A stretch of 64,000 bases of DNA. Source: Verrucomicrobiia bacterium (lineage in GTDB: Bacteria > Verrucomicrobiota > Verrucomicrobiia > Limisphaerales > DASXHY01). The translations under genes and the position numbers were made by a program. The stretch is from contig DASTXC010000007.1 of assembly GCA_035765675.1 (NCBI GenBank), forward strand, positions 7,696-71,695. The letters run 5' to 3'. Each line of letters starts with the position of its first letter. Within the stretch, counting starts at the first letter, position 1. Positions 2-56,879 of the stretch are shown here, one piece after another. The notes beneath the pieces are model-generated. The model saw only the letters and a program-made list of their open reading frames with translations. It made no database searches and had not been told where the DNA came from.

Positions 2-1126
2 GTTGCCGTCGTTTCTGGCGCCACCACAGATACCTATGAATGGGACGGGGCCAATCGCCTGACCGCCGTAGAACGTGTGACCAGCGGCGCGCGGGTGAGC
101 CGTTCGGAATTCAGCTATGATGGCCTGGGCCGGAGGGTTAAAATCGTGGAAAAGAATGGAACAGGAGCTACCACAAGCACGAAATTATTTCTCTGGTGTG
201 GATCAGAACTGTGTCAGGAGCAAAATTCCGGTGGCACCATTACAAAGGAGTTCTTCAGCCAAGGTGAAGTTCGGGGTGCTTCGAAGTATTTTTACACGCG
301 TGATCATTTGGGAAGCATTCGCGAGGTTGTTGATTATAGTGGTAACATATTAGCCAGATATGATTATGATCCCTACGGAGCACGCACAAAGGTAACCGGA
401 ACATTCGATTGTGATTTCGGATTTTGCGGCTATTATGTTCATGAGCCAAGCGGGCTATTCCTGACACTTTTCAGAGCCTACGGCTCCGATACAGGACGTT
501 GGCTGAATAGGGATCCAATCGGCGAACTCGGCGGTTTGAACCTCTACAACTACGTTTACAACAACCCGGTCAATTTCATCGACCCGTACGGACTATTCCA
601 AACAGGGATGTTTGTCCGTGGCGCGATTGGCGCGGTTGTAAGCGGCGTTGGTGCTGTCGTCGGATACGCAGCGGCGACTACCGGAGTTGGCACGATCCCG
701 GGAGGCGCACTGGGGATATATTCTTCCTATCAGTTTGGGGCGAACGTCGGGAACATGATCAATGCGTTCGGTGATGGTCCGGCTGGTCCGGCTGGTCCGG
801 CTGAAGCAGCGGCAACTCTGGCGACGGACAATCCGAATGTTCAGAAGTGCGGGCAAATTGCGGATTTGGCAATACCACTCGCGCTATCATTTGGAGCATC
901 GCCACAATGGTCACGGCTGCCTACAACTGCGCTGGGGCGGCCAGGGACAATTGCTGGTGCTGTGCAAAGAGTTCCAGGCGATCCAAATGTTGTCTATCCA
1001 TTCCTCCAAGCGTTCCAGTATGCCGATGCAGCCATCACTGTTTACGAAGGCTGGAATTGGGTCGGGCCTTCCTCGACAACACAAGTTAATCAACCACCGG
1101 CTCAAGTTGTTGGGCCAAGACCATAA
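2..1126 (+). CDS. RHS/YD-repeat protein, C-terminal part (5' end outside window), with RHS-associated core and variable C-terminal toxin domain
   Basis: The frame is open from nt 2 (..YEWDGANRLTAV..). YD repeats are present (FSYDGLGRR, YDYDPYG). The core ends in GRWLNRDPIGELGGLNLYNYVYNNPVNFIDPYGL (DPYGL = 581-595). A 176-aa Gly/Ala-rich tail follows. Confidence 0.85.
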   Translation, partial: VAVVSGATTDTYEWDGANRLTAVERVTSGARVSRSEFSYDGLGRRVKIVEKNGTGATTSTKLFLWCGSELCQEQNSGGTITKEFFSQGEVRGASKYFYTRDHLGSIREVVDYSGNILARYDYDPYGARTKVTGTFDCDFGFCGYYVHEPSGLFLTLFRAYGSDTGRWLNRDPIGELGGLNLYNYVYNNPVNFIDPYGLFQTGMFVRGAIGAVVSGVGAVVGYAAATTGVGTIPGGALGIYSSYQFGANVGNMINAFGDGPAGPAGPAEAAATLATDNPNVQKCGQIADLAIPLALSFGASPQWSRLPTTALGRPGTIAGAVQRVPGDPNVVYPFLQAFQYADAAITVYEGWNWVGPSSTTQVNQPPAQVVGPRP

Positions 1127-3989: not shown

Positions 3990-4301
3990 TCAGACTCCTT
4001 TCTCCATGCGAAGTATGGACTGCACTGCTCGTTCGACTTCATTGCTGGTGAGCTTCCAGGTATCCGGCAAACCGGCAATGACCGTCCATTTGAAGCGCTG
4101 ATGTATATCGAGCGCCTGCGGATCGTCCTGTAGGTGACTGGAGAGAATTGCGAGCGCGAGCTGAGCTGGACCGCTGCCGCTGCATCCCCATTCGAAACCG
4201 TCGGGGCTGTGGCTGTGGAGGTCGAGCCTCGGATCGAGAAGTTCACCGTCGACGGTGACAATGGCACCGGCTTTGGTGCGACGTCCTTCATACACGCTCA
4301 C
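3990..4301 (-). CDS. small hypothetical protein
   Basis: 103 aa with a HSPDGFEWGCSGSGPAQLALAIL motif. It overlaps the primase stop by 4 nt. Confidence 0.5.
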   Translation of the reverse strand: MSVYEGRRTKAGAIVTVDGELLDPRLDLHSHSPDGFEWGCSGSGPAQLALAILSSHLQDDPQALDIHQRFKWTVIAGLPDTWKLTSNEVERAVQSILRMEKGV

Positions 4302-5329
4302 AGATATGCCTCCGTGATCGTTTGAATTTCTTCCGCCGTGAGTTGGTCGGGCTGGGTGCCTTCTCTTTCGAACGTGTGAACTTTTACGAAACAGAAGTTC
4401 GCCAACCGCGCGGCGATGTCAGCCCGACCAGTGATTCCCGCCTCATCTTCATCAAGCATGATGACGATTCGAGGGAACTTGTCTCTGTGGGCTTTCAACC
4501 GCTCTTCCTGGGCTGCCGACAGGGTGCTGCCCATGAGGGCGACAACCTTGCGACAGCCATATTGGAAGAGCCTCATGCAGTCGAAGAATCCTTCGACGAT
4601 GATGAGCGGCATTTCCGGCGGCTCCTGAAGTGCCTGATCCAGATGAAACAGTTCTAGGGACTTCTTGAATCCAGGCGGGAGTTTGTATTTTGCCTCGTCG
4701 TCGCCCGGTTCACCGATGAACCGCCCGGCATACGCCACAATGAAACCGGCCTGATCTCGGATGGGGATGGCAATTCTATCTGCCATTATCCCTTTGCCGC
4801 AGAAGCCGATCTCAAAATGGCTGATTGTTTCCGGGGAAAGGCCACGTTCCTCAAGATACGGATGTTCCGGATCGAGCTTCTCCAGTTTGAACTTCAGCGG
4901 CTTGTTGGGTGTGGTGTCTTCCGGTGGTGGTGTGGGTTTCGGTCTGGGTTTTGAATCAAGCTTCCGTTTCGGCGTTTCCACTTCCTCTTCGGTGTTTTCT
5001 GACTCCGCATCGCGTTCAAACGATTTCGGATCGAGATTGAACCATTCCACGGCTTTGAGTGCCGCAGCGTGAATGCTCACGTCTTCCATTTTGGCGATGA
5101 AATCCAAAACATTTCCGCCGTGTTTGCACTCGCTGAAACAGTTGAACACGTTTTTGCTGATGCTCACGCGGAACTGCGTCGGATTGCTTCCTTTGTGGAT
5201 CGGACAAGGACCAGAGAGGCTGTCGCCGCTGCGTTTGAACTTGTCGAGAAGACCGTATCGGTCGAGAACTTGTTCCATGGTGACGGCCGCTTTGATGGCC
5301 TTGAAGTCAACGAACATAGATTTGGGCAT
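4298..5329 (-). CDS. DNA primase (CHC2 zinc finger + TOPRIM)
   Basis: GPCPIHKGSNPTQFRVSISKNVFNCFSECKHGGNVLDF is a CHC2 finger. IIVEGFFDCMRL ... VALMGS ... MLDEDEAG is a Toprim domain. I chose the internal ATG at 5327-5329 because AGGAG lies 6 nt upstream. The longest ORF extends to 5455. Confidence 0.85.
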   Translation of the reverse strand: MPKSMFVDFKAIKAAVTMEQVLDRYGLLDKFKRSGDSLSGPCPIHKGSNPTQFRVSISKNVFNCFSECKHGGNVLDFIAKMEDVSIHAAALKAVEWFNLDPKSFERDAESENTEEEVETPKRKLDSKPRPKPTPPPEDTTPNKPLKFKLEKLDPEHPYLEERGLSPETISHFEIGFCGKGIMADRIAIPIRDQAGFIVAYAGRFIGEPGDDEAKYKLPPGFKKSLELFHLDQALQEPPEMPLIIVEGFFDCMRLFQYGCRKVVALMGSTLSAAQEERLKAHRDKFPRIVIMLDEDEAGITGRADIAARLANFCFVKVHTFEREGTQPDQLTAEEIQTITEAYL

Positions 5330-5482
5330 GATTGCTCCTGTAGTTGGAATTGTTAATGTGCTAACGCCGGCTCGAAGAAATGAGCCGACTCCTGAAAGCA
5401 ATCCTACTGAGAAAAAAGAAAAGTCGTAGGCATGGAATCCTGTCGCGGGCGGCAAGTTGTGAAAATCGAAAGCAAGCGACGT

Positions 5483-6385
5483 TCAACCCAGGATCGTCCC
5501 CGTCTGGCCCGTTCTTCCAGCCTGGCAAATGTGGGAAAGTATTTGTGCCGGCCGTTCGAGTATTTTTGTGTCCGTAAAAAGAAACAGGCCGTGGCCGGTT
5601 TTCAATCTGGAGCACGCCTCGATAAGCGATTTCACGCGCTCTGGACTGGTCGCCACGGTCAAAACTCGGAAACGATTGAAACCAAAATTCTTTTCGTGAA
5701 TTGCTTGCGCCCAAGTGGCTTCATACGCAAGCAACTTGCGATAAAAGGAAGATTGCGAAAGCGTTTTGCGAGTGACGGGCATGGTGCCTCGATCAGCTTC
5801 CAGGAAAAAATATGAGCGTTGAATATTTCCATCTGAGCCGGTGAACTCCAACGCGAACACGCGATCAGGTGCGACGCTGAACCTTTGTCCCTGCACATTC
5901 ATCTTCCACCGAAACGGTTGGTTGGCTTTCGCAAGGTCCTGTTCGGCCAAAAGACGGATTCCGTTCTGCCGACAAGCAAGCTCAATCGAAACCACGATGT
6001 CTGACACAAGCAAGGCGTGTTTCAGGAACACGCGCCGGTCTGAATTGTCATCTTCATCCCAAGGGACAAAGCGGAACATCGGACCTAACTCGTTCTTGAG
6101 CAGCGCGGCACCATGACGTCCAAGGCAATACACCATCACATTTGAGCCGCCATGATGGTAATAGTCTATTTGGGCGCGAGGCCGCGTCAGATATCCGTTG
6201 TGGTAAAGCAATTTCAACCTTCGCAATACCTGCTGCGTGCTGCCCGGAACGAGGGCGCAAATGTGTGACGAGCGCAAAAAGCGATGGCGATATACCAGCC
6301 GAAGTATCTGAACGTCACGCTCGGTCAATTGAAAAGCCGGGGCATCGGAGGAACGCTGGAAACGTGGAAGCCTGGATAAAGACAT
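5483..6385 (-). CDS. replication-relaxation family protein (wHTH), candidate relaxase-like/initiator protein
   Basis: The N-terminal LTERDVQILRLVYRHRFLRSSHICAL wHTH, the size, and the position between a primase and a coupling ATPase are typical of this family. The call is by recognition only. Confidence 0.6.
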   Translation of the reverse strand: MSLSRLPRFQRSSDAPAFQLTERDVQILRLVYRHRFLRSSHICALVPGSTQQVLRRLKLLYHNGYLTRPRAQIDYYHHGGSNVMVYCLGRHGAALLKNELGPMFRFVPWDEDDNSDRRVFLKHALLVSDIVVSIELACRQNGIRLLAEQDLAKANQPFRWKMNVQGQRFSVAPDRVFALEFTGSDGNIQRSYFFLEADRGTMPVTRKTLSQSSFYRKLLAYEATWAQAIHEKNFGFNRFRVLTVATSPERVKSLIEACSRLKTGHGLFLFTDTKILERPAQILSHICQAGRTGQTGTILG

Positions 6386-6388
6386 GAT

Positions 6389-7705
6389 TTAGTCGTTAGC
6401 TGCTAAACTTAACGGCCTCATCCAGCGGTTCAGTTTGTCTTCAATGACTGGTCGCCTCATGGCAAATCGTTGACGAGATCTCTTGATGAGCCTGTCGCTT
6501 CGCCCGACACGGTTTTCAAGCGGCGGCAGCGTCCGTGCGCGGAACGGCTCTTTGTTCGTGCCGTTATCAAGCAACTTCACGACAGCTTCATATCGGTTAA
6601 GGTCGGCAATGGCCGCCGCTGAAAATGTATGACCAAACTCTTTCTCTATGATTTCGGCATCCGCATATCCGACACGGAAGGAGATCAGCGTTCCGGCATT
6701 TCCGAACACCGCCTGACGGACTGGAAGCGAGAGCTGATCAACGTATTGGTGGGACAAAATCAAGCATGAACGATACTTGCGAGCCTCGGCGAGAATGGAA
6801 GCGAAAGCGTCAGTCGAGAAATTCTGAAACTCGTCGATGAACAGGTAGAAGTCTTTGCGTTCGTGTTCAGGGCGATTTGAACGGGCCATTGCCGCGAGTT
6901 GAAACTGTGTCGTGAGCAACGAACCAAGCAGGTTCGCTTTCTCGTGCCCGAGTTTTCCTTTGGAAAGATTCGCAATGAACAGCCGTTCGTTGTTCATGAT
7001 GTATGGGATCTTCACTCGGGCGCGGACTTGACCCAGAATGTTTCGCACTACCGGGTTCAACAGGAATTGCCCAAGCTTGTTTTGAATCGGCGCGATGGCC
7101 TCGCGGCGGAAGCGGTCGTCGTATCCTTCATATTCTTCGGCCCAAAAGGCTCGGATGAATGGGTCTTTGATTTGGTGCACAACTTTGGCGCGGAACACCG
7201 GGTCAACCAGCATTCGGTTCACGCCCAGGAGCGTGGCGTTTTTGCAGTCGAGGAGTGCCGCGACGGAATTGTAAAGGATGTATTCAAGGCGCGGGCCCCA
7301 CGAATCGCGCCAGATGCCTTTGAATGCGCTCACCACGCCTGAAGCCACCAGGTGCCGGTCGTCCGGTGCAACATTAGCGAGCACATTCATTCCAATCGGG
7401 TGCTCAAGATCACTGGGATTGAAATATGTAAGATCGTCCGCGCGTTTTGGCGGAATATGGTGCAACAATTCGTCCGCAAGGTCGCCGTGCGGATCAATGA
7501 CGCCCACGCCATGGCCCATTGCGATGTGTTGAACAATTAAATTCCGCAACAGGGTCGTCTTGCCAGTGCCGGTCTTACCGATGATATAGATATGTTGGCG
7601 CTGGTCCTCCTTGGACACGCCAAAACGCTGGGGATTGCCCCAGCCGTCGCGTTCACCAATTATGATGCAAGGTTCTGATTCCAAAACCAGTCGCCACTTC
7701 TGCAA
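6389..7705 (-). CDS. TraD/VirD4/FtsK-HerA-type DNA-transfer coupling ATPase (T4CP-like, no TM segment)
   Basis: Walker A is GKTGTGKTT and the Walker B-like motif is LFIDEFQNF. The context is a conjugative element. Confidence 0.75.
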   Translation of the reverse strand: MQKWRLVLESEPCIIIGERDGWGNPQRFGVSKEDQRQHIYIIGKTGTGKTTLLRNLIVQHIAMGHGVGVIDPHGDLADELLHHIPPKRADDLTYFNPSDLEHPIGMNVLANVAPDDRHLVASGVVSAFKGIWRDSWGPRLEYILYNSVAALLDCKNATLLGVNRMLVDPVFRAKVVHQIKDPFIRAFWAEEYEGYDDRFRREAIAPIQNKLGQFLLNPVVRNILGQVRARVKIPYIMNNERLFIANLSKGKLGHEKANLLGSLLTTQFQLAAMARSNRPEHERKDFYLFIDEFQNFSTDAFASILAEARKYRSCLILSHQYVDQLSLPVRQAVFGNAGTLISFRVGYADAEIIEKEFGHTFSAAAIADLNRYEAVVKLLDNGTNKEPFRARTLPPLENRVGRSDRLIKRSRQRFAMRRPVIEDKLNRWMRPLSLAAND

Positions 7706-8022
7706 CCCGAAAGTCCCGTGTCATCAGACCACCGCGGTTACCCGCGAAGCGGCGCCTGCAGGGTGTGTGGGGGCACGCTGGCGAGGTAATGGCGACTGGT
7801 TTTGAAATCCAACAAGTGGATTCAGATCAGAGAATATATCGAGGAGACAGATTGTTGCAGGCCCGGAACATTGTCGTGCACGGCAACATTAGACGGCAGA
7901 TTTGCCGCATTTTTATACGGTTGTATCGGTCGTGAATCCGTCGTTTTCTCCGCGCCTTGGCGTGAAGTCCCGCGGAGCGATTCAGTGTTTCGGCGCGAAG
8001 CGCCTCATCTTAAAACCAGTCC

Positions 8023-8165
8023 CCCCAACGTGTCGGCCCGTTTTGATAAAAACGGCTACCGGCCGACTTAACGCTTTTTGGTAAAGGACACCGGTTAGGG
8101 GGACTGCATCCCGATAGCCGCAGGAAAAAGCGTTAAGTCGGGCGGTAGCCGACGACACGTTGGGG
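8023..8165. other. long branched inverted repeat (candidate oriT / single-strand initiation site / structured RNA)
   Basis: The left arm is ccccaacgtgtcg..ggctaccggccgacttaacgcttttt (8023-8079). It pairs with aaaaagcgttaagtcgggcggtagccgacgacacgttgggg (8126-8165). The left arm carries a nested mini-hairpin, ccgtttt-gata-aaaacgg. Confidence 0.6.
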
Positions 8166-8387
8166 GAACTCGTGGTGCGGCGGTTAAGCCGTGGAATCGT
8201 GAAAGTGAGTGGCGTAAACCACTACATGTCATGTATATACACTCTAAAGTAAGGGCTTTTGAGGCTCCGTGTTCCGAACGAATTAAAGGAATTTAGCCTA
8301 TTACTCCAGTGATTTTGACAGTCAAAACAAAATATGCTTGAATTAAAGCCAGTTGCATTGTTGGCGGCAATTTTTCGGGAATCGCTC

Positions 8388-8909
8388 ATGAAAAAACAAT
8401 ACCCGCAAGAATCGTGGTGGATCGACGGTCTTAAGTTATCTGCTTCTGCAATTGATCGCACTGGTGTCTTTAGCTCTCGGTTTATACGGGAAGGCACTGT
8501 CGTAATACGATGGGGCGGAATCGTCTTTACAGGCTCTGAAATGCGTGAGGGAAAAGCATGCCAGCATACGTATGTAGGAATTGACGACGATCTATTTTTG
8601 GCAAATCCAGCAGCTCAGCCACCTGGCCTTGATGACTTTATGAATCATTCATGCGATGGGAACTTATGGATGGAAGATGACACAACACTGATAGCTCGAC
8701 GAGACATTATGGCGGACGAAGAATTAACCTCCGACTATGCACTGTGGCTCAACTTGCCCGAGTATCGAATGAAGACTCCATGCAATTGCCACTCACCTTT
8801 ATGTAGGCATACGATTACCGGTTTGGACTGGCGAATTCCCGAGGTTCAGAAAAGATATTTTGGTCACTTCTCTCCATTTATTAATAAACTCATTCTAAAA
8901 AACTCCTAA
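8388..8909 (+). CDS. SET-domain protein (lysine methyltransferase fold)
   Basis: FMNHSCDGNL ... ADEELTSDY are SET motifs, and a Cys-rich post-SET stretch CNCHSPLCRH follows. The start was chosen at MKKQYPQE. The longest ORF begins at 8334. Confidence 0.85.
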   Translation: MKKQYPQESWWIDGLKLSASAIDRTGVFSSRFIREGTVVIRWGGIVFTGSEMREGKACQHTYVGIDDDLFLANPAAQPPGLDDFMNHSCDGNLWMEDDTTLIARRDIMADEELTSDYALWLNLPEYRMKTPCNCHSPLCRHTITGLDWRIPEVQKRYFGHFSPFINKLILKNS

Positions 8910-8910
8910 T

Positions 8911-9618
8911 ATGCTCACTCTAATCACAGGCGGAAGTCGAGGTATCGGATACGCGATAGCTCAAGAAATGGCGAAAAAAGGAAGCGATTTGTTGCTGGTT
9001 TCACAGAATGCAAAAAAGTTGCAGACCGCATCGAACAAACTTAAAAAGCAATATCCGAAGTTAAAAATCAACTCCCATGTTTGCGATATGGGTTCGCAAG
9101 AAGAAATAAATATTCTCGCTGATGATTGTATCCGAACAAATCTCGTTCCAGATTTTTTGATACTGAACGCGGGTATCTTTCTTGAGGGAAGCTTAGTGAA
9201 CTCCAAGCCGCAGGACTACCGCAAAACCTTGGAGGTGAACCTGAACGCAATTTATTATTTAGTGCAGAGACTCGCTCCAAAAATGGCTTCCAAAAAAAAG
9301 CCGCGCATCGTTCTTATAGCATCTACAGCCGCATATGAAGCTTATCCTGTTGGGGCGTTATACGGCGTCGCGAAGTGGGCATTAAGGGGTTATGCTGTAA
9401 ACCTACGGAAGGAACTTATGAAGAACGGTATAGGAGTCACTCTAGTCGCTCCGGGTGGAACCCTGACGGACTTGTGGGCGGGTGAAGAGCTACCACCAAA
9501 TCGCCTATTAGAACCAAAAGATATCGGTACCATCATCGCTAACTTTGTAGATCTTAGTTCCCAGGCAGTTGTAGAAGAAGTAATTGTCCGACCAATGTTG
9601 GGCGATATGCACGAATAA
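8911..9618 (+). CDS. short-chain dehydrogenase/reductase (classical SDR)
   Basis: TGGSRGIGYAIA is the TGxxxGxG motif, LNAGI the NAG motif, and YGVAKWAL the YxxxK motif. It starts 2 nt after the SET stop. Confidence 0.9.
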   Translation: MLTLITGGSRGIGYAIAQEMAKKGSDLLLVSQNAKKLQTASNKLKKQYPKLKINSHVCDMGSQEEINILADDCIRTNLVPDFLILNAGIFLEGSLVNSKPQDYRKTLEVNLNAIYYLVQRLAPKMASKKKPRIVLIASTAAYEAYPVGALYGVAKWALRGYAVNLRKELMKNGIGVTLVAPGGTLTDLWAGEELPPNRLLEPKDIGTIIANFVDLSSQAVVEEVIVRPMLGDMHE

Positions 9619-9638
9619 AGCCCATCACCCTTAAAACC

Positions 9639-10475
9639 ATGGGGCTCGAAGTAATCACTGGCGGTATTGAAGTGGCCGGAAAGCTCTTTGAATCTTTCGG
9701 GAGTGTAATAGGGCGACGAATTAATATTAAAGAGCTAAAGAAATCAAATGATCGACATATCGACGATATATTAGATCTATATGAACGCATTTTTAAAGCA
9801 GAGCACAAGATTCCAGGATCAGATTTGATCGCTTGGCTTCAAACTCGAGACACGACAGAACCCGCAGAAGAACGAATTCAACAATGTTTACTTTTTGCCA
9901 AACGCAAATCCGCTGTCGTCGGAGTTCTCAAGGCGCTGTATTGTCCACAATCTCGGTATGTGTTGGTCTCCTATTTAGGGATTGATAAACAATCCGACAC
10001 CGTTAGTCGAAAAGTTGCCCGAAAGATGATGATTAGCTTTTTTGCTCGTTTCTTGAACCGGAAATGGAAGGATTATCGCGGGATAGTCTTTGAAATTGAG
10101 ACGGCACTTCCTGGCATGGTTAAGGCTGAAAAGGACGAATGCAGGGCCCGGCTCAGATTGTTTCGAGATATTGCAACGCAACAAAATAGCCGGGCATTGC
10201 ACATTAAGATGGATTACCACCAGCCGAAGATGGCGGATGAGGAGAATTACACCGGCACCGGACGTAAGATGACTTTAATGTTTATACCAAAAAAGCATAG
10301 CGGTGACTTTATTGCCAAAGCAATCGTGGAAAATCTGCTTAAATTTTTACTTTTCCGAGTTTACGGAACTACACAGACAATATCGGGAAGAAGGAAGGAA
10401 GCATACGGGAAGTATCTCAATGGTATTTACAAGTTAACAGTTAATCAACTCACCGAGCATGTAGATGTTGAATAG
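9639..10475 (+). CDS. hypothetical protein (orphan; possibly GNAT-like fold, unverified)
   Basis: 278-aa ORF with no competing ORF, AT-rich codon usage like its neighbours, and an 11-nt overlap with the downstream kinase-like gene. Confidence 0.55.
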   Translation: MGLEVITGGIEVAGKLFESFGSVIGRRINIKELKKSNDRHIDDILDLYERIFKAEHKIPGSDLIAWLQTRDTTEPAEERIQQCLLFAKRKSAVVGVLKALYCPQSRYVLVSYLGIDKQSDTVSRKVARKMMISFFARFLNRKWKDYRGIVFEIETALPGMVKAEKDECRARLRLFRDIATQQNSRALHIKMDYHQPKMADEENYTGTGRKMTLMFIPKKHSGDFIAKAIVENLLKFLLFRVYGTTQTISGRRKEAYGKYLNGIYKLTVNQLTEHVDVE

Positions 10476-11058
10476 GTTAGAACAAGAGTCTGCTTGCCCC
10501 TGTATTATTCTCATCGGAACTACTGGCGCGGGAAAGTCGCTGTCGTGTGAACTGGTTGAGCGATTTTATATGGCTGAAAGGGTAAGAAGATTTACCACCA
10601 GAGCACCGAGAAATGATGATGACGCGAAATTGGTAGTTCATGTGGAACACATTGCCCCTGAGAGGAATTCATTTGTGTATGAAGGTTGGGGTGACACCCG
10701 CTATTGTATACAATCGTCCGATATGATTGCGATTCGGGCCAAATTAAAAAGTCCATTGGTCGAATTGGGAGATCCAACGGACGCTATCAGATTTAGAATG
10801 CAATTTGCACCCGCTAAAATTGTTTGCCTCTGGCGAGATATGAATGTAGAAGGGCTCGAAAAGCTGTTTGGCACAAGGAACATTTCTGAAGAGCAAAAGA
10901 AACTTAGGTTGGAGTCACTTGAAGAGGATATTCTTAGGCTTCGAATTAGCTCTAACAATTATGATTTCGTTATTCAAAATAATTCATCTGCGGATGCTCT
11001 CTTCGAAAGCTGGCGGGAGATTCTAAAACAATTGAATGTGCCAGCAATCGAGAATTAG
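10465..11058 (+). CDS. guanylate-kinase-like P-loop kinase
   Basis: The P-loop is GTTGAGKS. RFTTRAPRNDDD matches the GK TTRxPR motif. The lid and C-terminal pattern is LRLESLEEDI...NYDFVIQNN. Confidence 0.65.
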   Translation: MLNRLEQESACPCIILIGTTGAGKSLSCELVERFYMAERVRRFTTRAPRNDDDAKLVVHVEHIAPERNSFVYEGWGDTRYCIQSSDMIAIRAKLKSPLVELGDPTDAIRFRMQFAPAKIVCLWRDMNVEGLEKLFGTRNISEEQKKLRLESLEEDILRLRISSNNYDFVIQNNSSADALFESWREILKQLNVPAIEN

Positions 11059-11073
11059 CGAGGGGCGTATTAA

Positions 11074-11972
11074 GAGCGTGTCTGAAAAATCATGAATGAA
11101 GCGGAATCAGGCCAGGCGGCGGAGTTGGATTCGGATCATGGCGATGTGGATCCAGGCTTCGGCGCTGGACTCGGTGGTTTCGTAATCGCGCACCAGACGG
11201 CGATGGCGCATCAACCAGCCGAAGGTGCGCTCCACGACCCAGCGACGCGGCAATACTTTGAATCCTTTGACGTCATCGGAGCGTTTGACCACCTCGACGT
11301 TCAGCCTGGGCCGAATGGTTTTAACCCACTGGGCGAAGGCTGGGCCGGTGTAGCCACCATCCACCCACAGAATTCGCAGCCAGGTGAACCAGCTCAGGGA
11401 TTGTTTCAAAAGCAGTTGCGCTCCGTCGCGTTCAGTGGTGCTGGCCGGAGTGACCATCACGCCCAGAATCAATCCCAGAGTGTCCACCAGCAAATGGCGT
11501 TTGCGGCCGTTGATCTTTTTGCCGGCGTCGTAACCCACAACTCCGCCGTGGCCGTCGGACTTGACGCTTTGGCTGTCGAAGAATCGCCGCCGTGGGTCGG
11601 CTGCGCTTGCCGTGCGTTCGGCGAACCAGGACGCGCAGCGCGTCATGGATCGCAGTCCAGTGGTCATTGGCGATCCATTGGCGGAAGACGTGGTAAACGG
11701 TTTTCCAGTTGGGAAAGTTGGCGGGCAGATAGCGCCAGGGGCAGCCGCTTTTGACCAGATAGAGAATGGCGTCCAGTATCCGTCGCCGGTCTTTGGGTGG
11801 ACGTCCGCGTTTGGCTGGTTTGGGAAGCATCGGTTTGAGGTAAGTCCATTGGGCGTCCGTAAGATCAGTGTCGTATTTGGCGATTTTCATCGCCTGACTG
11901 GCGCTACCGCGAATCAAAGCCAACCACATCGCCAGCAAAATCAAGCTCTTTCTCTATTTTTCAGACAGGCTC
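11074..11972 (-). mobile_element. IS5-family (IS427-group-like) insertion sequence
   Basis: The terminal IRs are gagcgtgtctgaaaaat (11074-11090) and atttttcagacaggctc (11956-11972), matching at 16/17. They are flanked by TAA on both sides (11071-11073, 11973-11975), which I read as a putative TSD. The element is 899 bp. Confidence 0.85.
11107..11890 (-). CDS. IS5-family DDE transposase in two overlapping frames (orfA 11432-11890, orfB 11107-11667)
   Basis: orfA reads MKIAKYDTDLTDAQWTYLKPMLP..GRPPKDRRRILDAILYLVKSGCPWRYLP. orfB reads FFDSQSVKSDGHGG..GKKINGRKRHLLVDTLG..WVDGGYTG..RRWVVERTFGWL. orfB is in the +1 frame relative to orfA. Confidence 0.8.
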
Positions 11973-12030
11973 TAAGACTTTGCCGATAAGCATGAATGTG
12001 GCAGATATTACTCACATTGGGTAATTTGGA

Positions 12031-12087: not shown

Positions 12088-12366
12088 ATGGACGGCATGA
12101 CAGACAAAAAATATTTTTGGTCGTATCAGGAGGTAGCCGATTTTCTTAAGGAGAACGATTTTGAATTTATGAGCGGTTCAAATGGCTCGACCGGAGCATG
12201 GATAAGATTGAATGAGAATGGCGAGCCGGACACTGTGTTTGAATTAAAATTCACCCCCACCAATTACACAAAAAAGCAGATCAGTCGAATAATCCGCATG
12301 TCCGAGATTCCTGAGAGCAAGTGGATCGAATGGTTTGAAGAACGACTGAATGAAGCCGCACCATAA
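12088..12366 (+). CDS. small hypothetical protein (weak HicA/YcfA-like flavour)
   Basis: 92-aa ORF. The ADFLKENDFEFMSGSNGS pattern is reminiscent of HicA-type folds, with low certainty. Confidence 0.4.
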   Translation: MDGMTDKKYFWSYQEVADFLKENDFEFMSGSNGSTGAWIRLNENGEPDTVFELKFTPTNYTKKQISRIIRMSEIPESKWIEWFEERLNEAAP

Positions 12367-12494
12367 GCAGCTTAGCCACAATCTTAGGAATTCAATTCAC
12401 GCCAAAATTCCGGTTTTTCGCGTTGCCTTTTTCACTTTTTGAGCTTCGGAAGAAGTGGTAAACTTTGCTTGTCAAAACCCTCATTTTTTCCCTG

Positions 12495-12525
12495 CTGGTG
12501 CGAACATCCTTCAAGTCCCGCAGCA
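12495..12525. repeat. 31-nt perfect direct repeat, copy A (ctggtgcgaacatccttcaagtcccgcagca)
   Basis: Identical to 15172-15202. The flanking homology is much weaker. Confidence 0.85.
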
Positions 12526-12544
12526 ACTTGTCGTCCGCGACAAC
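12525..12544. promoter_or_regulatory. palindromic site aacttgtcg-tc-cgcgacaac abutting repeat copy A
   Basis: The arms are ttgtcg/cgacaa. The site sits exactly where homology to the intact recombinase gene ends. Confidence 0.4.
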
Positions 12545-12557
12545 ATTTTATGTCTGT

Positions 12558-12581
12558 AAAAGCCCTCAACTGAGGGCTTTT
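12558..12581. terminator. bidirectional rho-independent terminator
   Basis: The sequence is aaaa-agccctca-ac-tgagggct-tttt. Confidence 0.65.
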
Positions 12582-12756
12582 ATAATTTCAGGAGTTTCAC
12601 TTTTTACCTCCGAGCAACTTAGTAATTCTAAACACCATAAACGCGGTAAACGGCATACCCTGACATTGTGCATAAAAGCATTGCCCTAAAATTTCCATAA
12701 GTGTAGTCTTAGAGGGTAGGTTTTCTCCGTCTCATCTGTGGTGTTCAATTCATTAT

Positions 12757-14577
12757 ATGAAATTACGGTCTATTTCTATTAGGAACTTCCGATGCTTGGA
12801 CGAAGCGTCCATTTCCATTCGGGATCTAACAAGCCTTATCGGTCCTAACAATTGCGGTAAATCCTCTGTGCTCCGCGCCATTGAGATTTTTTTAAATCAG
12901 CAATCTCCTACGCTTCAAGAATGGCGTGTGGGTCACAGTGATAAAGCTATCGTGATCGAGGGAGAATTTGATAGCCTTCAAGAGTGGGAAAGATCGACAT
13001 CCGGCGTGGCAGGCCTTGTTTATAATGACAAAATAAAATTAAGGGTAAGTTTTTCAATTAATTCCGAAACGGAAAAAGTAGAAAAGGTTTATGAGGCCTT
13101 CAAACAGGAAGAGACCATTGCTGGATGGTCTGACAAATGGTCTGACCTTGCCGATAATATTAAGGCGATCGCCGAAGGTGCTGGCGTCAATGGCACTGGC
13201 TGGCGCACCGCCGGCAAGCGAGAACAAGTGAAAAGCGTCATCCGTCAGACCAAAGCGGACCTTGTCACCTACGGTGAGGCAAAATGGTCGACCGAAAATA
13301 TCAGTATTGACGCAGCGCTCCAGCAGGCTATCCCCCAGGCGCAGCTGATTCCAGCGGTCCGCGACGCGAGTGATGATAGTAAACCCGGGTCAAAAACTTC
13401 ATTCGGTCTGATTCTGAGCAAAATCCTTCTACCGGCGATTCAAGCATCAAGCGAATATACAGAATTGATGAGCGCTGTTCAAAAGCTTCAAACAAAACTC
13501 GCGGCAGAGGGCGCAGATCAAATTGAAAAAATCCGAGAAATCACAAAGTTGTTATCAGGCCGTCTTTCGTCGGTTATCGACGCAAAGGTGCTCCTTACAA
13601 TGACCACACCGGATGCGGAAAAGTTTATTGGATCCAATACCGGTCTTGAGCTCGATGACGGCACTCGGACATCAATAAATTTACAAGGTAATGGTCTTCA
13701 ACGTGCTCTCGTATTTGCATTAATGGAGACACTGGCCGCGCAAAATGCACAGATATTAGATGAGCAAGGAAAGCCTGCCCGTTCCCGGAGCACCCTGGTC
13801 CTTTTCGAAGAGCCGGAGCTTTTCCTGCACCCACACATTATGAGAAGTCTGAAACAGGCATTACATGTCATTTCTCAAAAATCGGATTGGCAAGTAATTC
13901 TAACGACACATTCACCGTTCATGATCGACATTGCTGATGACCCCTTGTCATTAGTGATTTTTAGGAGAGAAAATTCCAAAACTCCTCCAAAAGCAATTCA
14001 GTTGAAAGTTGATCCTTTCGGACAGGATGAGGATTCAAAGCGGGACAGAGAAGCGTTACGCGCCGCGCTCAATTTTCATCCAACCGTATGCGAAGCATTC
14101 TTTGCTAAACGGACGGTGCTCGTGGAAGGCGATTCCGAAATGGCGGTGCTTGTCAGGCAGCCAGAACTGTATGCAAAGGCTGAAGTAGATTTAGAAAAGC
14201 GACAACATTGCACTATGGTTTCGTGTGGAGGAAAGTGGACCATTCCGCCAATGGCAAATTTGCTCAAACAATTTGGTATTCCATTTCGCATAATTCATGA
14301 TCAAGATAAAAAAGGACGGTCGAATGCGGAACTGGCGGAAGCGGTGGCTATTGATCCATACCGAGCTAACGCGCGCATTGCTGCTTTTGCGTCACCAGAA
14401 AATATTCTTATTGTCGATGATACCCTAGAAGATTTGTTTTGGCCTCCTGACAAACGGCCAAAATCATCCGGTGATAAACCACATCGCATTTGGAAACGAG
14501 TGAAGGAGTTAGTAGAGGGTCAAGAACCGCTCAATGCGGAAATCAAAGCATTTGTTCAGTTTGCGTTCAACTGGTAA
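12757..14577 (+). CDS. OLD-family ATP-dependent nuclease (ABC-type ATPase + TOPRIM)
   Basis: The N-terminus is MKLRSISIRNFRCLDE. Walker A is GPNNCGKSS, the signature-like motif LQGNGLQRAL, Walker B LVLFEEPELFLHP and the H-loop LTTHSP. The C-terminal Toprim has VLVEGDSEMAVL and HDQDKKG. Confidence 0.85.
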   Translation: MKLRSISIRNFRCLDEASISIRDLTSLIGPNNCGKSSVLRAIEIFLNQQSPTLQEWRVGHSDKAIVIEGEFDSLQEWERSTSGVAGLVYNDKIKLRVSFSINSETEKVEKVYEAFKQEETIAGWSDKWSDLADNIKAIAEGAGVNGTGWRTAGKREQVKSVIRQTKADLVTYGEAKWSTENISIDAALQQAIPQAQLIPAVRDASDDSKPGSKTSFGLILSKILLPAIQASSEYTELMSAVQKLQTKLAAEGADQIEKIREITKLLSGRLSSVIDAKVLLTMTTPDAEKFIGSNTGLELDDGTRTSINLQGNGLQRALVFALMETLAAQNAQILDEQGKPARSRSTLVLFEEPELFLHPHIMRSLKQALHVISQKSDWQVILTTHSPFMIDIADDPLSLVIFRRENSKTPPKAIQLKVDPFGQDEDSKRDREALRAALNFHPTVCEAFFAKRTVLVEGDSEMAVLVRQPELYAKAEVDLEKRQHCTMVSCGGKWTIPPMANLLKQFGIPFRIIHDQDKKGRSNAELAEAVAIDPYRANARIAAFASPENILIVDDTLEDLFWPPDKRPKSSGDKPHRIWKRVKELVEGQEPLNAEIKAFVQFAFNW

Positions 14578-14603
14578 CATCATAAATTTGTTAACTTGTC
14601 TGG

Positions 14604-15041
14604 ATGCAAAACAATCATCCGTTCACGCTCTCCGAGCGCGCATTAGCAGAATACAAGAAAGTGTATCAAGATGAGTTCGGCAGTGGCGATTCCGATGAGG
14701 AGATATATGAATCCGCATACAACCTGATGAAGCTATTCCAGCTTCTTCTTAAATCTTCGCCGCAAAAGGTCGCAGACAGAAAGATTGGAGTTACCATACA
14801 AGAATTCAAAGCACTCAAATACCTCCATCACGCCATATATCATAAAGGAGAATCGCCGTCAGTCCGCGACGTGGGTGCTGCCATGGGGTTCCGATCCTCC
14901 CGCTCGGGCCAGGTAATCATAGAGAAACTGATGGAAAAGGGATTTGTGTATCGCGATCAGGACGGCCGGATGCAACTTTCTGAACCCGTCCGTGGATGTG
15001 ACGCCAACCTGTGGGAACTTGCCGTCCAAGACAAGAAATAG
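14604..15041 (+). CDS. LexA-type winged-helix DNA-binding protein (no peptidase domain) with a distinct 45-aa N-terminal module
   Basis: ESPSVRDVGAAMGFRSSRSGQVIIEKLMEKGFVYRD resembles the LexA N-terminal wHTH. The N-terminal LSERALAEYKKVYQDEFG..LMKLFQLLL is paralogous to the 46-aa ORF at 16942-17082. Confidence 0.65.
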   Translation: MQNNHPFTLSERALAEYKKVYQDEFGSGDSDEEIYESAYNLMKLFQLLLKSSPQKVADRKIGVTIQEFKALKYLHHAIYHKGESPSVRDVGAAMGFRSSRSGQVIIEKLMEKGFVYRDQDGRMQLSEPVRGCDANLWELAVQDKK

Positions 15042-15086
15042 GGTCTTCGTTGATTCGGCTGAGAGGCTATATTTAACCGACGGAAC

Positions 15087-16883
15087 CTAATTATTCGCGT
15101 TCGGCTCGAAAGCCGCCAATTCTTTGAAGTGGTGGTATACTTTGCTTATCAGAAGTTTAATTTTATCAGCTCTGGTGCGAACATCCTTCAAGTCCCGCAG
15201 CAGAGTTAAATACTGGTATTCCAAAGGACTTTTCCGCCTTTGTATGACCACGGCGTTTTCTGGTGCGACCGGCGCGATTTCTCCACGCTCCGTCGCAAGA
15301 AAATCTCCGAGCCAAACAAACGGTTTCTTGGCTTCCATCAATAGCCTTTTGTCATGCAAGGTCTGGTGCGATCCCATGGTCGTTAGAATCTGCTTTTTGG
15401 TTCGAAAATCACCTTTGGCAAACTTCTCACAAGCCGATTCGGCAAACTCAAATACTTCCTGAGCCTGGCGTAATGCCTGTTCTGCACTGGCACGATCATT
15501 TCTTGGAAGGTTTTCCAAAGCTGCTTTTTCACCAAGCAATTCACGACGCTGCATTGCGTATTCCTCGTCAGAAAGCAAGCTGCCGTCCATATTCGCGGGC
15601 GACATTTTGAATCGGATCAGGTTTTCGAGTCGTTTCAGGCAATTTGCGTAGGCCTTTTCGTAAGATTGCTTGATGTGGTAATCGCTCGTTGCATCTTCAC
15701 GGTGGATTTCTTTCAGAAAGCTGAACGACCAGTCTTTGAACGTGCCTGAGATTTCGATGCGCCTCAATTGTGCCACGATCTGTTCTTCAAGTTTTGCAGC
15801 TTCGATGCCGGGTTGTGTGCATCCGCCTTTTCTCCGGGCACAATGGTAGTAAGTGTAATCGCGGAAAACCGGCTTCGTCATTTTCGCAATCGGCGTGCCG
15901 CATCGCGGGCACTTGTCATGTTTGTGATAGACAAACTTCAACCGGCAATTTGTGCAACGCAAATTGTGCTTTTCCTCTGCTGTCACCATTCCGCTACAAG
16001 CACCGCAACGAATGATGCCGGTGTATGGGAACGCAGTGTGTTTGCTGGCCCGAGGATTACCTTTCCGCCATAAAATCGCTTGCACCCGATCAAACTCTGC
16101 TTTGGTAATCATTGGCTCGTGCTTGCCCTCATACCAGTTTCCGCTGCGACGAGGGTATTCAAACCAGCCATAATAGAACGGATTATGGAAAATATGATAC
16201 AGGGCGCTCACGCTCAGAGGGCTGTCACCCTGCCTTTTCGTTCGGCGCGTTCGAAATCCCCATTGCTCATTCGCAATTTTCGCAATCTGCGGCGGCGTGT
16301 AGGTGCCAGTGAGCATCATCTGCCACATTTGTTTGATAAGGGGGAAACGGTCGGCGTCTTTGTAAAGGTCGCGCTCGCCGCGCAATTTTGTTTTGTCATT
16401 AAGATATCCCATGGGGGCGACGCCGGGATACCAGCCCATGCTCGCTTTCTTTCGCAATCCGCGCTCCACATCTATGCCCTTATTATCGTTTTCGAGCTTC
16501 GCCTGGCCGCAAAAGAGAATGATAAGAAATTTGTCAGCCGGAATGTTCTTGAATGTTTGGCTCGGAGTGCGAATTTCCATCAGCTTGTTTTGGTCCATAA
16601 GTTCCACCAGAGCCGCGGCATCGCCAGCGTTTCGTGAAAGGCGGTTCAAGTGCCAGCACAGAATTGCGTTGCCCTCACCTCGTTTAATTCGGCGCAGCAT
16701 GTCGTTGAAATTCTTACGAGTGCCCGACGTTTTTGCGGATGCTTCTTCTTCAATCTGACCCGCAATCCGGAGGTTATCCCGCGATACAATCGGGTGTAGT
16801 TCGTCCCGCTGTGATTCGTTCGAGATGATTTGTTTCTCGTCATCCTCCTCTGATTTGCGACAATATATGAAGTGGGTAAGCAT
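15087..16883 (-). CDS. large serine recombinase
   Basis: The N-terminal resolvase domain reads IYCRKSEEDDEKQIISNESQ. A recombinase domain follows, then a zinc ribbon (CGACSG..CTNC..CPRCG) and a C-terminal coiled coil. Confidence 0.9.
   Translation of the reverse strand: MLTHFIYCRKSEEDDEKQIISNESQRDELHPIVSRDNLRIAGQIEEEASAKTSGTRKNFNDMLRRIKRGEGNAILCWHLNRLSRNAGDAAALVELMDQNKLMEIRTPSQTFKNIPADKFLIILFCGQAKLENDNKGIDVERGLRKKASMGWYPGVAPMGYLNDKTKLRGERDLYKDADRFPLIKQMWQMMLTGTYTPPQIAKIANEQWGFRTRRTKRQGDSPLSVSALYHIFHNPFYYGWFEYPRRSGNWYEGKHEPMITKAEFDRVQAILWRKGNPRASKHTAFPYTGIIRCGACSGMVTAEEKHNLRCTNCRLKFVYHKHDKCPRCGTPIAKMTKPVFRDYTYYHCARRKGGCTQPGIEAAKLEEQIVAQLRRIEISGTFKDWSFSFLKEIHREDATSDYHIKQSYEKAYANCLKRLENLIRFKMSPANMDGSLLSDEEYAMQRRELLGEKAALENLPRNDRASAEQALRQAQEVFEFAESACEKFAKGDFRTKKQILTTMGSHQTLHDKRLLMEAKKPFVWLGDFLATERGEIAPVAPENAVVIQRRKSPLEYQYLTLLRDLKDVRTRADKIKLLISKVYHHFKELAAFEPNANN
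15172..15202. repeat. 31-nt perfect direct repeat, copy B (inside the recombinase 3' end)
   Basis: Identical to 12495-12525. It encodes LLRDLKDVRT in both copies. Confidence 0.85.
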
Positions 16884-16941: not shown

Positions 16942-17082
16942 TCAATCGGGCGCGAGGAGGAGCTTCAAAAGTTTCAAGAGAGCAGCGCCCGTTTCTTGAG
17001 CTGCATCGTCGGAAATCTCTTCACCAAATTCCTTTTTATAGATGGCCTTAAATTCATCAATCGCTTTCTGGCTCAACCTCAT
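16942..17082 (-). CDS. 46-aa ORF immediately upstream of the recombinase (candidate accessory/directionality factor)
   Basis: It reads MRLSQKAIDEFKAIYKKEFGEEISDDAAQETGAALLKLLKLLLAPD and is below the ORF-track cutoff. It shows about 38 percent ungapped identity (by eye) to residues 8-50 of the 14604 protein. Confidence 0.5.
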   Translation of the reverse strand: MRLSQKAIDEFKAIYKKEFGEEISDDAAQETGAALLKLLKLLLAPD

Positions 17083-17321: not shown

Positions 17322-17657
17322 ATGCCTTCGCCACAGCTTCCTCATCATTTGCGGGCCAATAGAAAGCGTCTGGCGCTGTCGCAGGACGATGTGGCCTTTC
17401 TGCTGGGCGCTACGGATGGCGCACAAGTCTCAAAGTATGAACACTTCGCCAGAGTGCCTACACTCGAAACCGCTCTCGCCTACGAAGTGATCATGAAACG
17501 GTCTGCGAGCGAGCTTTTCGGCGGACTGTATCGGAGTGCGGAGCAAAAGGTGGCTGACCGTGCACAGATTCTTCTCAAACGCATCAAACATTTGCCTGGA
17601 AAATATTCCACCGAAAAACGCCGAATGCTGGAAAACTTAGCCGACATCAGGAATTAA
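17322..17657 (+). CDS. XRE-family helix-turn-helix regulator
   Basis: LRANRKRLALSQDDVAFLLGATDGAQVSKYE is an HTH_3-like motif. Confidence 0.75.
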   Translation: MPSPQLPHHLRANRKRLALSQDDVAFLLGATDGAQVSKYEHFARVPTLETALAYEVIMKRSASELFGGLYRSAEQKVADRAQILLKRIKHLPGKYSTEKRRMLENLADIRN

Positions 17658-17663
17658 ACTTCC

Positions 17664-18179
17664 ATGAACAATAAGCCATTCAAAAACTCGCTTATTTTCG
17701 CAATTGCGCCTTCATTCTGGGGCGTCGGATTTGCAGTGGTTGAAAACGGAACTCTTGTGGATTGGGGCATGAAGGCGACCAAGGGCGACAAGAATTCAGC
17801 TGCGGTGGCGCAGATGGAAAAATTAATCGCGCAGTATAGACCTTCTGTGTTCGTCATGGAGGATGTGCATGGTCAGGACTCCCTGCGTTCAGAACGAATT
17901 CGTTCTCTCGCAAAGCGGCTTTGCGCCCTCGCTGAACAAGCAAAGATTAAAACAGCGGCTATGCCGCGACGGGAGATTCGGAAGATATTTTTTGCTGACG
18001 GACGAGGATCCAAAGACGCTTTGGCCGCTATGATCGGAGAACGGTTTTCCGAAGAACTTGGACGCATATTGCCTCCGAAGCGAAAAGCGTGGATGAACGA
18101 GCATTTCCGAATGCCGGTATTTGAAGCGGTAGCATCTGCATTGGCTTTTGAAAGCTTTAGAAGACAGCAGCTTCTATGA
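17664..18179 (+). CDS. RuvC/RNase-H-like fold protein with degenerate catalytic residues
   Basis: The pattern is IFAIAPSFWGVGFAVVENG..LIAQYRPSVFVMEDV..IKTAAMPRREIRK..FEAVASALA. It parallels the RuvC GIDPG..E..DAADA layout, but the first Asp is Ala. Confidence 0.4.
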   Translation: MNNKPFKNSLIFAIAPSFWGVGFAVVENGTLVDWGMKATKGDKNSAAVAQMEKLIAQYRPSVFVMEDVHGQDSLRSERIRSLAKRLCALAEQAKIKTAAMPRREIRKIFFADGRGSKDALAAMIGERFSEELGRILPPKRKAWMNEHFRMPVFEAVASALAFESFRRQQLL

Positions 18180-56795: not shown

Positions 56796-56879
56796 GGGAG
56801 TTGTTCAAATGTCGATTGTGATGGGATTGCGCTTTCTATAATTTCCCGGTTTGAGGGAAAACATTAACAAGGTAACCAC

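Follow-up and report, generated by a model that had tools for sequence, protein, structure and literature searches.

The described systems closest to the locus reported here are the split integrases of SSV1 type, the cis-mobilizable elements (CIMEs) that accrete with integrative and conjugative elements (ICEs), the staphylococcal cassette chromosome (SCC) elements, and integrons. Our locus lies in a 64,000-nt stretch of the genome of a Verrucomicrobiia bacterium (GenBank assembly GCA_035765675.1, contig DASTXC010000007.1, positions 7,696 to 71,695 of the forward strand; hereafter the window), where a large serine recombinase (LSR) gene is followed by a short unit that encodes an OLD-family nuclease. 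In Streptococcus thermophilus, CIMEs and the ICEs ICESt1 and ICESt3 rely on a tyrosine integrase and on an attB site in the 3′ end of the host gene fda. SCCmec and recombinase-less SCC-like cassettes reside at rlmH (orfX) and are moved by CcrAB or CcrC. As for the cargo, Old of phage P2, the OLD Class 1 type, is a single gene that joins an ATPase to a TOPRIM domain. The system described here works like the SSV split integrases, CIME/ICE accretion, SCC and integrons, but it departs from each of them in the enzyme or the target that defines it.

In the SSV1-type ("suicidal") integrases known from viruses and plasmids of archaea, the att site lies within the integrase open reading frame (ORF), and the gene is split when the element integrates into a tRNA gene (PMC7253208, PMC8371274). 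The present system resembles them in its in-ORF site, its tRNA target, and the C-terminal piece left at the far end of the element. However, theirs are archaeal tyrosine recombinases in which the split removes a large essential part, whereas here the enzyme is a bacterial LSR, exchange is limited to the last 27–45 codons, and the ORF reads on into the tRNA in antisense. Because the LSR is a serine and not a tyrosine recombinase, it works like the SSV type without being a member. The parallel to CIMEs and ICEs, whose accretion is treated in reviews (PMC5704250, PMC4701971), is that att-flanked, recombinase-less units stand in tandem with a recombinase-bearing element and are co-excisable via the outermost sites. 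Indeed, identical sites of the resident element flank a unit in the window that has no recombination or transfer genes of its own; the difference is that the shared site lies inside the recombinase gene, and each accreted unit rewrites the recombinase C-terminus. SCC elements likewise combine large serine recombinases with direct-repeat-bounded cassette arrays, some of them without ccr, and restore the 3′ end of their target, but that target is the host gene rlmH, while here it is a recombinase gene or a tRNA-type site. The LSR scores 60.9, 52.1 and 36.2 bits against the NCBIfam models CcrB, CcrA and CcrC, far below the cutoffs of 900, 700 and 900 bits, which places it outside the SCC recombinases.

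Integrons, including the sedentary chromosomal ones, store defense cassettes (bioRxiv 10.1101/2024.07.02.601686), and the likeness extends to a recombinase gene edging an array of short recombinase-less cassettes, many of them for defense, each ended by a structured site. IntI, however, belongs to the tyrosine recombinases, uses attC in its folded single-stranded form as substrate, and inserts beside intI rather than inside it, while here the arrays are short, with one or two cassettes seen. With a serine recombinase, and with cassette ends that carry a copy of the LSR site instead of attC, the locus is not an integron. Islands and tycheposons that target tRNA genes integrate into the 3′ part and restore the gene (PMC4383910; bioRxiv 10.1101/2020.12.28.424599), and they too form tandem arrays marked by partial tRNA repeats and include defense genes in their cargo. 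They differ in that 910 of 937 tycheposon-like elements have tyrosine integrases, to which tRNA targeting is usually credited (PMC4383910), and in that the att site is not in the integrase ORF. The searchable full-text literature yielded no serine-recombinase case of an att site within the integrase gene, nor of recombinase-less cassettes accreting there. Two known ideas, the in-gene att site and recombinase-less cassette accretion, are thus combined in an enzyme class for which we found no precedent.

We consider it likely that site-specific accretion of recombinase-less cassettes at an attachment site within the ORF of the LSR explains the window. The following features carry the argument:

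15087 to 16883, minus strand: large serine recombinase (LSR), 598 aa, by Pfam and a PHROG integrase match (1.3e-60)
15172 to 15202, minus strand: site 1 (repeat copy B), proposed recombination site in the LSR ORF, codons 562–571, LLRDLKDVRT
15087 to 15171, minus strand: tail B, the last 27 LSR codons, proposed replacement 3′ end arriving with the cassette
12495 to 12525, minus strand: site 2 (repeat copy A), second copy of the site and distal cassette boundary
12392 to 12494, minus strand: orphan tail A, proposed displaced original 3′ end of the LSR, frame intact (tail hidden Markov model [HMM], E = 5e-12)
12088 to 12366, plus strand: 92-aa conserved gene, convergent on tail A, marking the ancestral downstream neighbor of the LSR

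The 31-nt sequence CTGGTGCGAACATCCTTCAAGTCCCGCAGCA occurs in exactly two copies in the window, both on the plus strand and with 0 mismatches between them (12495–12525 and 15172–15202); a scan at up to 3 mismatches gave no additional matches, and the expectation from 100 shuffles was 0. In a self-BLAST, a weaker similarity of 83% extends beyond the 31-mer leftwards (12449–12525 against 15126–15202). Minus-strand translation of either copy gives (L)LRDLKDVRT in frame, and the reading then passes into differing tails: copy B lies within the 598-aa LSR ORF, whose tail reads RADKIKLLISKVYHHFKELAAFEPNANN, and copy A opens a 44-codon orphan ORF (12392–12526) that reads SREKMRVLTSKVYHFFRSSKSEKGNAKNRNFGVN. 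The similarity between the copies stops at the right edge of copy A (alignment A1), beyond which stand a palindrome (12528–12543) and a terminator-like hairpin. The interval between the repeats measures 2646 bp (12526–15171) and the whole unit 2,677 bp; removing the interval and one repeat fuses the LSR in frame to tail A. These results agree with the initial annotation, made from the letters of the window, which had described a perfect 31-nt direct repeat, in-frame LLRDLKDVRT followed by diverged recombinase tails, an end of homology at copy A, and an in-frame recombinase with the alternative tail upon deletion.

Evidence for an insertion comes from a syntenic trio formed by the window and the loci L158/L159 and L160. 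In all three, 81-aa, 171-aa, helix-turn-helix (HTH) and small-ORF genes stand on the upstream side of the LSR, and the 92-aa gene stands on its downstream side. In addition, L158/L159 and the window share RHS/Ig and TrwB-like/Replic_Relax (relaxase) genes. The three loci present the following states:

L160, empty: LSR through the site directly into a tail-A-class end (..KVYHFFRSSKS..NFGVN)
L158/L159, filled with another payload: site 1 and a tail-B-class end, an unrelated 206-aa gene, site 2 and an orphan tail-A-class end, then a homolog of the 92-aa gene
Window, filled: tail B, a winged-helix (wHTH) gene and the OLD gene between the LSR 5′ part and tail A

The convergent 89-aa homolog of the 92-aa ORF in L160 stops 24 nt beyond the LSR end, and the corresponding distance in the window is 26 nt. 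The unit in L158/L159 is 1,237 bp long, and its two sites are one base apart in 33. Homologs of the 92-aa gene directly follow the LSR tail in L160, L086 and L097 and the orphan tail in L158, and they lie farther downstream in L070, L064 and L007. Orphan tail A itself aligns with the functional LSR tail of L160 and with the orphan tail of L158. The orthologous syntenic locus L160 thus supplies the empty site, and other payloads occur both in L158/L159 (the 206-aa gene) and, in a different LSR lineage, in L156 (a 69%-identical OLD plus an NYN gene). Neither a second recombinase nor a remnant of one lies at 12.4 kb, and the tail HMM matches the window at two sites only. Altogether, this supports the proposal in the initial annotation of an insertion into the recombinase 3′ end that brings a replacement end. 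As a separate observation, ~39 nt of tail A (AAGCAAAGTTTACCACTTCTTCCGAAGCTCAAAAAGTGA) are identical in the orphan tail of the window and the functional tail of L160 (alignment A3, window 12400–12450), and the same stretch differs by one base in L158. The DNA of tail A is therefore much better kept than the gene that it completes, the LSR bodies of the window, L160 and L158 being just 57–58% identical as proteins.

The repeat was initially taken as the signature of a junction. A two-copy junction is indeed present, but the 31-mer is more than a scar; comparison with relatives indicates that it is the LSR's own attachment site within its own ORF, where it mimics the 3′ end of a tRNA-Gln. In gene sense, site 1 reads TGCTGCGGGACTTGAAG|GATGT|TCGCACCAG, that is, a tRNA-Gln 3′-end-like arm, the pentamer GATGT, and a T-loop-like core. 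The window arm C-TGCGGGA-CTTG matches exactly, from the discriminator through the 3′ acceptor strand to the T-stem, the tRNA-Gln(CTG) that is fused to the LSR of L100, and the TCG(A/C)AC that follows the arm and GATGT is T-loop-like. The 30–31-mer is invariant or one base off in L064, L070 and L072, whose genes are 74–77% identical in DNA. Alignment A2 shows no change in the 30-mer among L064, L070 and the two window copies, and L072 retains the whole 31-mer. When six of the genes were aligned by codon, identity at third codon positions reached 0.88 over the 10 site codons against a gene mean of 0.50, the highest of ~670 alignment windows. The orphan copy, which codes for no functional protein, is equally perfect. 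Visual inspection of the 31-mer showed weak dyad symmetry, which did not hold for all clades and was set aside.

Relatives of the LSR connect this site to tRNA genes. In 24 fetched loci, mostly from Patescibacteria and some from metagenomes, a minus-strand tRNA gene (Gln, Asn, Ser, Asp, Trp, His or Arg) lies exactly at the LSR 3′ end. Among 22 loci checked, the LSR stop codon falls inside the antisense tRNA in 17 and 4–24 nt past it in three. Protein similarity between tRNA-fused and tailed LSRs is lost exactly at ..D|DVRT. GATGT is absent at the tRNA junctions and present in intact genes and orphan sites, which places the crossover to the left of GATGT, near the T-stem/T-loop border. The junctions of more than 20 tRNA-fused relatives and of the two-site cassettes share one position, with the dinucleotide placed only as left of GATGT. 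In L005, an island (4738–11680) lies between an orphan tail and a tRNA-Gln, with host genes on both flanks. The SSV-type arrangement, with the site in the integrase ORF and the gene split on integration, is therefore found in relatives (20 of 22 loci, plus L005), while the LSR gene of the window is unsplit. No tRNA gene is present in the window, and a search of IMG/VR viral contigs gave 0 matches to the site.

Orphan tails downstream of an LSR recur in more than 10 lineages. The tail profile detected 24 of them in the fetched loci, all on the LSR strand. An orphan tail lies downstream in 14 of the 29 loci that have at least 3 kb past an intact site, or in 9 of 24 once six contigs with the same LSR protein P0005 (L064–L069) are collapsed; L151 has two in series. 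Wherever the LSR-internal and orphan sites were aligned (7/7 loci), their similarity begins at one point, within a few nt of the left edge of the arm. Hairpins usually precede the orphan sites: 12 of 18 have a perfect stem of 6 bp or more within 100 nt, compared with 9 of 45 LSR-internal sites. The loci L076, L078, L120 and L156 have a common backbone of an XRE HTH gene, a GGTTCGATTG flank, palindrome, arm and tail, and their cargo differs. Cassette cargo is mostly of defense or toxin type, including OLD, NYN/HEC-09, AbiEii with a TIR-like effector, Fic/SoFic/PDC-S04 and proteases, and the smallest cassettes measure 0.8–1.2 kb (L080, L158).

In the window, the cassette contains the following payload and boundary structures:

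12757 to 14577, plus strand: OLD-family ATPase/TOPRIM nuclease, single gene, cassette cargo and defense candidate
14604 to 15041, plus strand: 145-aa protein, N-terminal domain homologous to the LSR-upstream small ORF, C-terminal part a LexA-type winged helix (wHTH)
12528 to 12543: palindrome TTGTCGtccgCGACAA, 6-bp stem, 2 nt from site 2
About 12558 to 12581: GC hairpin AAAAGCCCTCaactGAGGGCTTTT, with A and T runs on both sides, at the distal cassette end

The OLD protein has an N-terminal ABC/AAA ATPase domain (AAA_15 2.9e-46, residues 1–390) followed by a C-terminal OLD-like TOPRIM nuclease domain (7.2e-16, 448–517), which makes it a member of the OLD family. The best PADLOC match is Old (7.8e-84); at the level of cargo, and as far as sequence tells, it shares the single-gene ATPase–TOPRIM architecture of P2 Old, but its genomic setting is not that of a P2-like prophage. 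The 145-aa protein matches LexA_DNA_bind (2.4e-7). Used as tblastn queries, its residues 6–58 match the small ORF upstream of the LSR at many loci, and its C-terminal part matches L072, L070, L098 and L155. No recombinase gene lies between the repeats in the window, only the OLD and wHTH genes, and the earlier description of the payload as a defense-type nuclease and a DNA-binding protein without an integrase of their own is borne out by these domain matches. The family of OLD and the defense-rich cargo of sister cassettes suggest that OLD and the wHTH protein act in defense.

The boundary structures also have counterparts elsewhere. Comparable palindromes with 6-bp stems precede orphan sites in L078/L120 (TTGGTAtatcTACCAA, with variants in L076 and L001), L156 (TTGTTActtcTAACAA) and L064 (TTTGCGcaattaCGCAAA), and hairpins like ..CTC-NGTT-GAG.. 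precede those of L064, L098, L123 and L155. The A and T runs that flank the GC hairpin of the window give it the look of a bidirectional terminator. Homologs of OLD, 65–72% identical, were met in six other contexts, and in four of these (L154–L157) they adjoin an LSR tail or site. L156 holds its 69%-identical OLD inside a two-site cassette of a 613-aa LSR lineage, L155 has a permuted junction (OLD-hairpin-site|tail-wHTH) of the kind that a circle junction or a tandem copy would give, and L157 has an OLD homolog at a tail junction against host genes. In L154, a 67%-identical OLD is convergent on a truncated 471-aa recombinase and no site is present, which is suggestive but uninformative.

Tail classes are mosaic on the tree of LSR bodies, with which they are incongruent. 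The bodies of L070 and L072 are 91% identical and their tails differ (tail A-long in L070, tail B in L072), with similarity breaking exactly after ..GTTCGCACCA and resuming at the stop codon of the wHTH gene. L158, which has tail B, is sister to L160 and P0016, which have tail A. The tail-B class of the window is thus also seen in L072 and L158, whose sister genes have tail A.

In relatives, the crossover at integration, near the T-stem/T-loop border, joins the LSR 5′ part to a tRNA gene read in antisense, and the 27–45-codon tail stays at the other end of the element. The unit of the window, in the order tail B, wHTH gene, OLD, hairpin, palindrome and site, corresponds topologically to a circle that recombined with an LSR ending in tail A. 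In the mechanism that we propose, the cassette, comparable to a CIME, would depend on the resident LSR and would keep it full length with the copy of the LSR 3′ end that the cassette brings. By the route that we favor, a first step would bring the cassette into the tRNA target beside the resident element, restoring a full-length LSR with the tail of the cassette, and in a second step the composite would be co-excised via the outermost sites; alternatively, direct recombination with the site in the LSR gene would give the same product. Tandem full elements at tRNA-Asn, in which LSR1 reads into the tail of the next element (L022, L031, L061), lend direct comparative support to the first step, for full elements only, and in L045 and L024 the LSR is fused directly to the tRNA. 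Comparison between loci brings out the site, the empty and filled states, alternative payloads, fusions to tRNA genes, full elements accreted in tandem, and the mosaic distribution of tails. We infer that the LSR catalyzes the cassette steps as well, at the site pairs and in the direction given above, and the empty, filled and alternative states together with the permuted junction of L155 suggest that the resident LSR would also drive (co-)excision of the cassette. The initial annotation had suggested a hitchhiking cassette that parasitizes the recombinase, or a cargo-swap hotspot. Its recombinase-less cassette stands, and it is most simply seen as ordinary accretion at the site.

Several observations weigh against accretion of a mobile cassette. 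Both sites of the window look P-type on their right sides, and characterized large serine integrases pair unlike sites and do not recombine two like sites. A direct reaction of site 1 with site 2 would thus be unusual, which favors the route by accretion. Neither an excised circle nor a deletion junction of this cassette was found in the database, and no within-population polymorphism was seen: the 90% cluster of the LSR has one member, and the six contigs L064–L069 are all filled. L072 is collinear with the window through tail B and the wHTH gene at just 76% DNA identity, so the insertion may be old and the cassette perhaps fixed rather than mobile. L070 has 5.3 kb of other cargo after its LSR and no second site. 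In L152/L153, a 72%-identical OLD lies near a syntenic TrwB-like gene, without site, wHTH gene or LSR, which indicates that the OLD gene also travels or persists outside cassettes. Finally, an element with an unsplit attachment site lies here in a contig with chromosomal-looking genes, an arrangement that accretion leaves unexplained.

Other histories could produce two sites and two tails. Homologous recombination or gene conversion at the conserved coding stretch LLRDLKDVRT would make the locus a cargo-swap hotspot only, with no role for the recombinase. It would suit L070 and L072, which differ in just ~130 nt (the tail); their right breakpoint falls where the wHTH gene has its conserved 3′ end, and on that side the change resembles a homologous exchange. 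Tails 70–85% identical could seed such recombination. We nevertheless judge it improbable, because the site is kept at synonymous positions and in orphan copies that code for no functional protein, because the same position serves as the tRNA junction in more than 20 relatives, as in a site-specific event, and because orphan sites keep the arm only and no upstream coding sequence, which fits a minimal protein-binding site better than a tract of homology. It is also possible to imagine two complete tandem elements, of which the second lost the 5′ part of its recombinase by deletion and left its tail at 12.4 kb, nothing recombinase-less having moved. Given that neither the window nor any two-site-aligned locus has a recombinase remnant between its sites, and that independent deletions would not yield the constant start of similarity (within a few nt, at the left edge of the arm) in seven aligned loci, this history is distinctly improbable. 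It draws on the complete-element arrays that exist in the family (L022, L031, L061) and on cassette regulators homologous to those of full elements (XRE HTH protein, small-ORF domain). Yet the regulator pair of the cassettes is in reversed order relative to full elements, with the small ORF leftward and the HTH gene rightward, adjoining the site; moreover, at the empty site of L160 the recombinase leads without interruption into tail A and on to the 92-aa gene, and cassettes go down to 0.8–1.2 kb (L080, L158).

The syntenic relative with OLD and no recombinase (L152/L153) prompted another explanation, in which OLD and the hairpins are resident DNA downstream of a tRNA-Gln, and site 2 is the left junction of another tRNA-integrated element. 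The arm of site 2 does match the tRNA-Gln 3′ end, and terminator-like hairpins adjoin it, but we rejected this explanation on the L160 junction, where the recombinase is joined directly to tail A and the 92-aa gene. It is made very improbable also by the window itself, which has neither a tRNA gene nor a second recombinase and in which site 2 has the recombinase-type ..CTTGAAG and not the tRNA-type ..CTTGGAC, and by the linkage of the wHTH gene to the LSR tail, not to OLD, in L070, L072 and L155. An assembly artifact such as a chimeric join at a shared k-mer deserves mention, since the contig is from a metagenome-assembled genome (MAG) and 31 nt is a common k-mer size. Its probability is close to nil: frames, hairpins and gene order are coherent over both junctions, and the same architecture recurs, with repeats of 29–196 nt, in many independent assemblies from JGI, ENA, NCBI and Logan, including six samples for L064–L069. 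Site-specific accretion at the in-ORF site therefore remains the reading that we prefer.

A wider proposal, which we regard as speculative and on present evidence unlikely, is that the LSR family is an integron-like platform for defense-gene capture that docks at its own last codons, with the tail as an exchangeable switch. If so, every captured cassette would rewrite the C-terminal tail of the LSR, and tRNA integration would remove it. The tail would switch recombinase activity, directionality or choice of partner, possibly via the small ORF, whose domain is also found fused to wHTH, and cassettes would compete through tails that favor their own retention or spread. Accretion at the in-ORF site would in itself provide a sequence-defined route for shuffling OLD, NYN, AbiEii, Fic and similar genes among Verrucomicrobiota. 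The same recombinase family is placed at tRNA genes in Patescibacteria, and the mobile elements of both phyla are little known. LSRs are sought-after tools for genome engineering, and this family is a possible source of many natural pairs of enzyme and site, each directed at its own tRNA. [quoted passage not shown] The exchangeable C-terminal tail offers a direct test of how such enzymes are regulated.

The recombinase is a member of the large serine recombinases by its domain order, a resolvase catalytic domain (Pfam Resolvase 4.3e-20, residues 5–150) followed by recombinase (Recombinase 8.1e-12, 181–271) and zinc-ribbon (Zn_ribbon_recom 5e-9, 324–374) domains. Its distant PDB matches are the A118 and SPbeta integrases, and it is 100% identical to a protein from a Verrucomicrobiae MAG. 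Around it and the cassette lie:

16942 to 17082, minus strand: small ORF, 46 aa, upstream of the LSR, conserved in about 90 loci
17322 to 18179, plus strand: conserved upstream pair, an XRE-type HTH protein (111 aa) and a 171-aa protein
4298 to 7705, minus strand: mobilization/replication module of a DnaG-like primase, a Replic_Relax protein and a TrwB-like ATPase, syntenic with L159

The product of the 46-aa small ORF could be a recombinase cofactor, directionality factor or regulator and is a candidate for each. A ~45-residue domain, LSxxAIxEFKxIYxxEFGxxLSDxEAxExGxxLLxxF, constitutes a small ORF just upstream of nearly every LSR in the family and appears again inside cassettes, free or fused to wHTH; it has no family match in Pfam (searched with the wHTH fusion), NCBIfam or PHROGs. 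Copies are located as follows:

Window: 16942–17082 and 14604–14780
L078: 9685–9909 and 12628–12810
L098: 9204–9623
L123: 12500–12775

The 171-aa protein of the upstream pair gave a motif impression of a RuvC-like protein, which was dropped after sequence searches of Pfam, NCBIfam, PHROGs and PDB gave nothing. The P0005 loci have a tandem duplicate of this pair, with ~170-aa and HTH proteins (L064 3077–3948 and 4373–5228). As to the ends of the whole LSR-bearing element, nothing att-like was found at ~18.1–18.3 kb in the window, nor in L078, L070 or L072.

The mobilization/replication module probably belongs to the element of the LSR. Comparing window 4298–7705 with L159 8639–10856, the TrwB-like ATPases are 91% and the Replic_Relax proteins 78% identical in amino acids, while the LSR bodies are just ~58% identical, which suggests that the modules differ in history. 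A second variable region, for which no bounding recombination site was found, lies past the 92-aa gene and before the TrwB-like gene (window 8197–12030, L158 12461–15550, L160 5093–10315). It contains SET, SDR, 278-aa and 197-aa genes in the window, a GATase/NAD-synthase-like gene and Peptidase_M78 in L158, and TIR, PIN_12 and AAA_18 in L160. Between the 92-aa and 197-aa genes, the window carries an IS5-family transposase as two overlapping ORFs (11107–11944, minus strand; DUF4096 and DDE_Tnp_1). The split suggests an insertion sequence that is either frameshifted or expressed by programmed frameshifting, and L070 has an insertion sequence of the same Pfam domains at a similar position.

Farther from the cassette, a large RHS-repeat protein (1839 aa; window 27290–32809, plus strand), preceded by an Ig-domain protein, is syntenic with L158, and a further RHS fragment is found where the window begins (77–1126, plus strand). 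Three tandem paralogs of ~365 aa occupy 33571–36868 on the minus strand, and the first of them is, by its Pkinase match (3.9e-51), a Ser/Thr protein kinase. Several dispersed repeats of 60–160 nt at 82–95% identity, unrelated to the recombinase site, are found in the right half of the window. They occur as these pairs:

56331–56477 and 56653–56798
39625–39780 and 62060–62195
44784–44866 and 62041–62123
51319–51395 and 56585–56662

These dispersed copies may represent a small repeated intergenic element.

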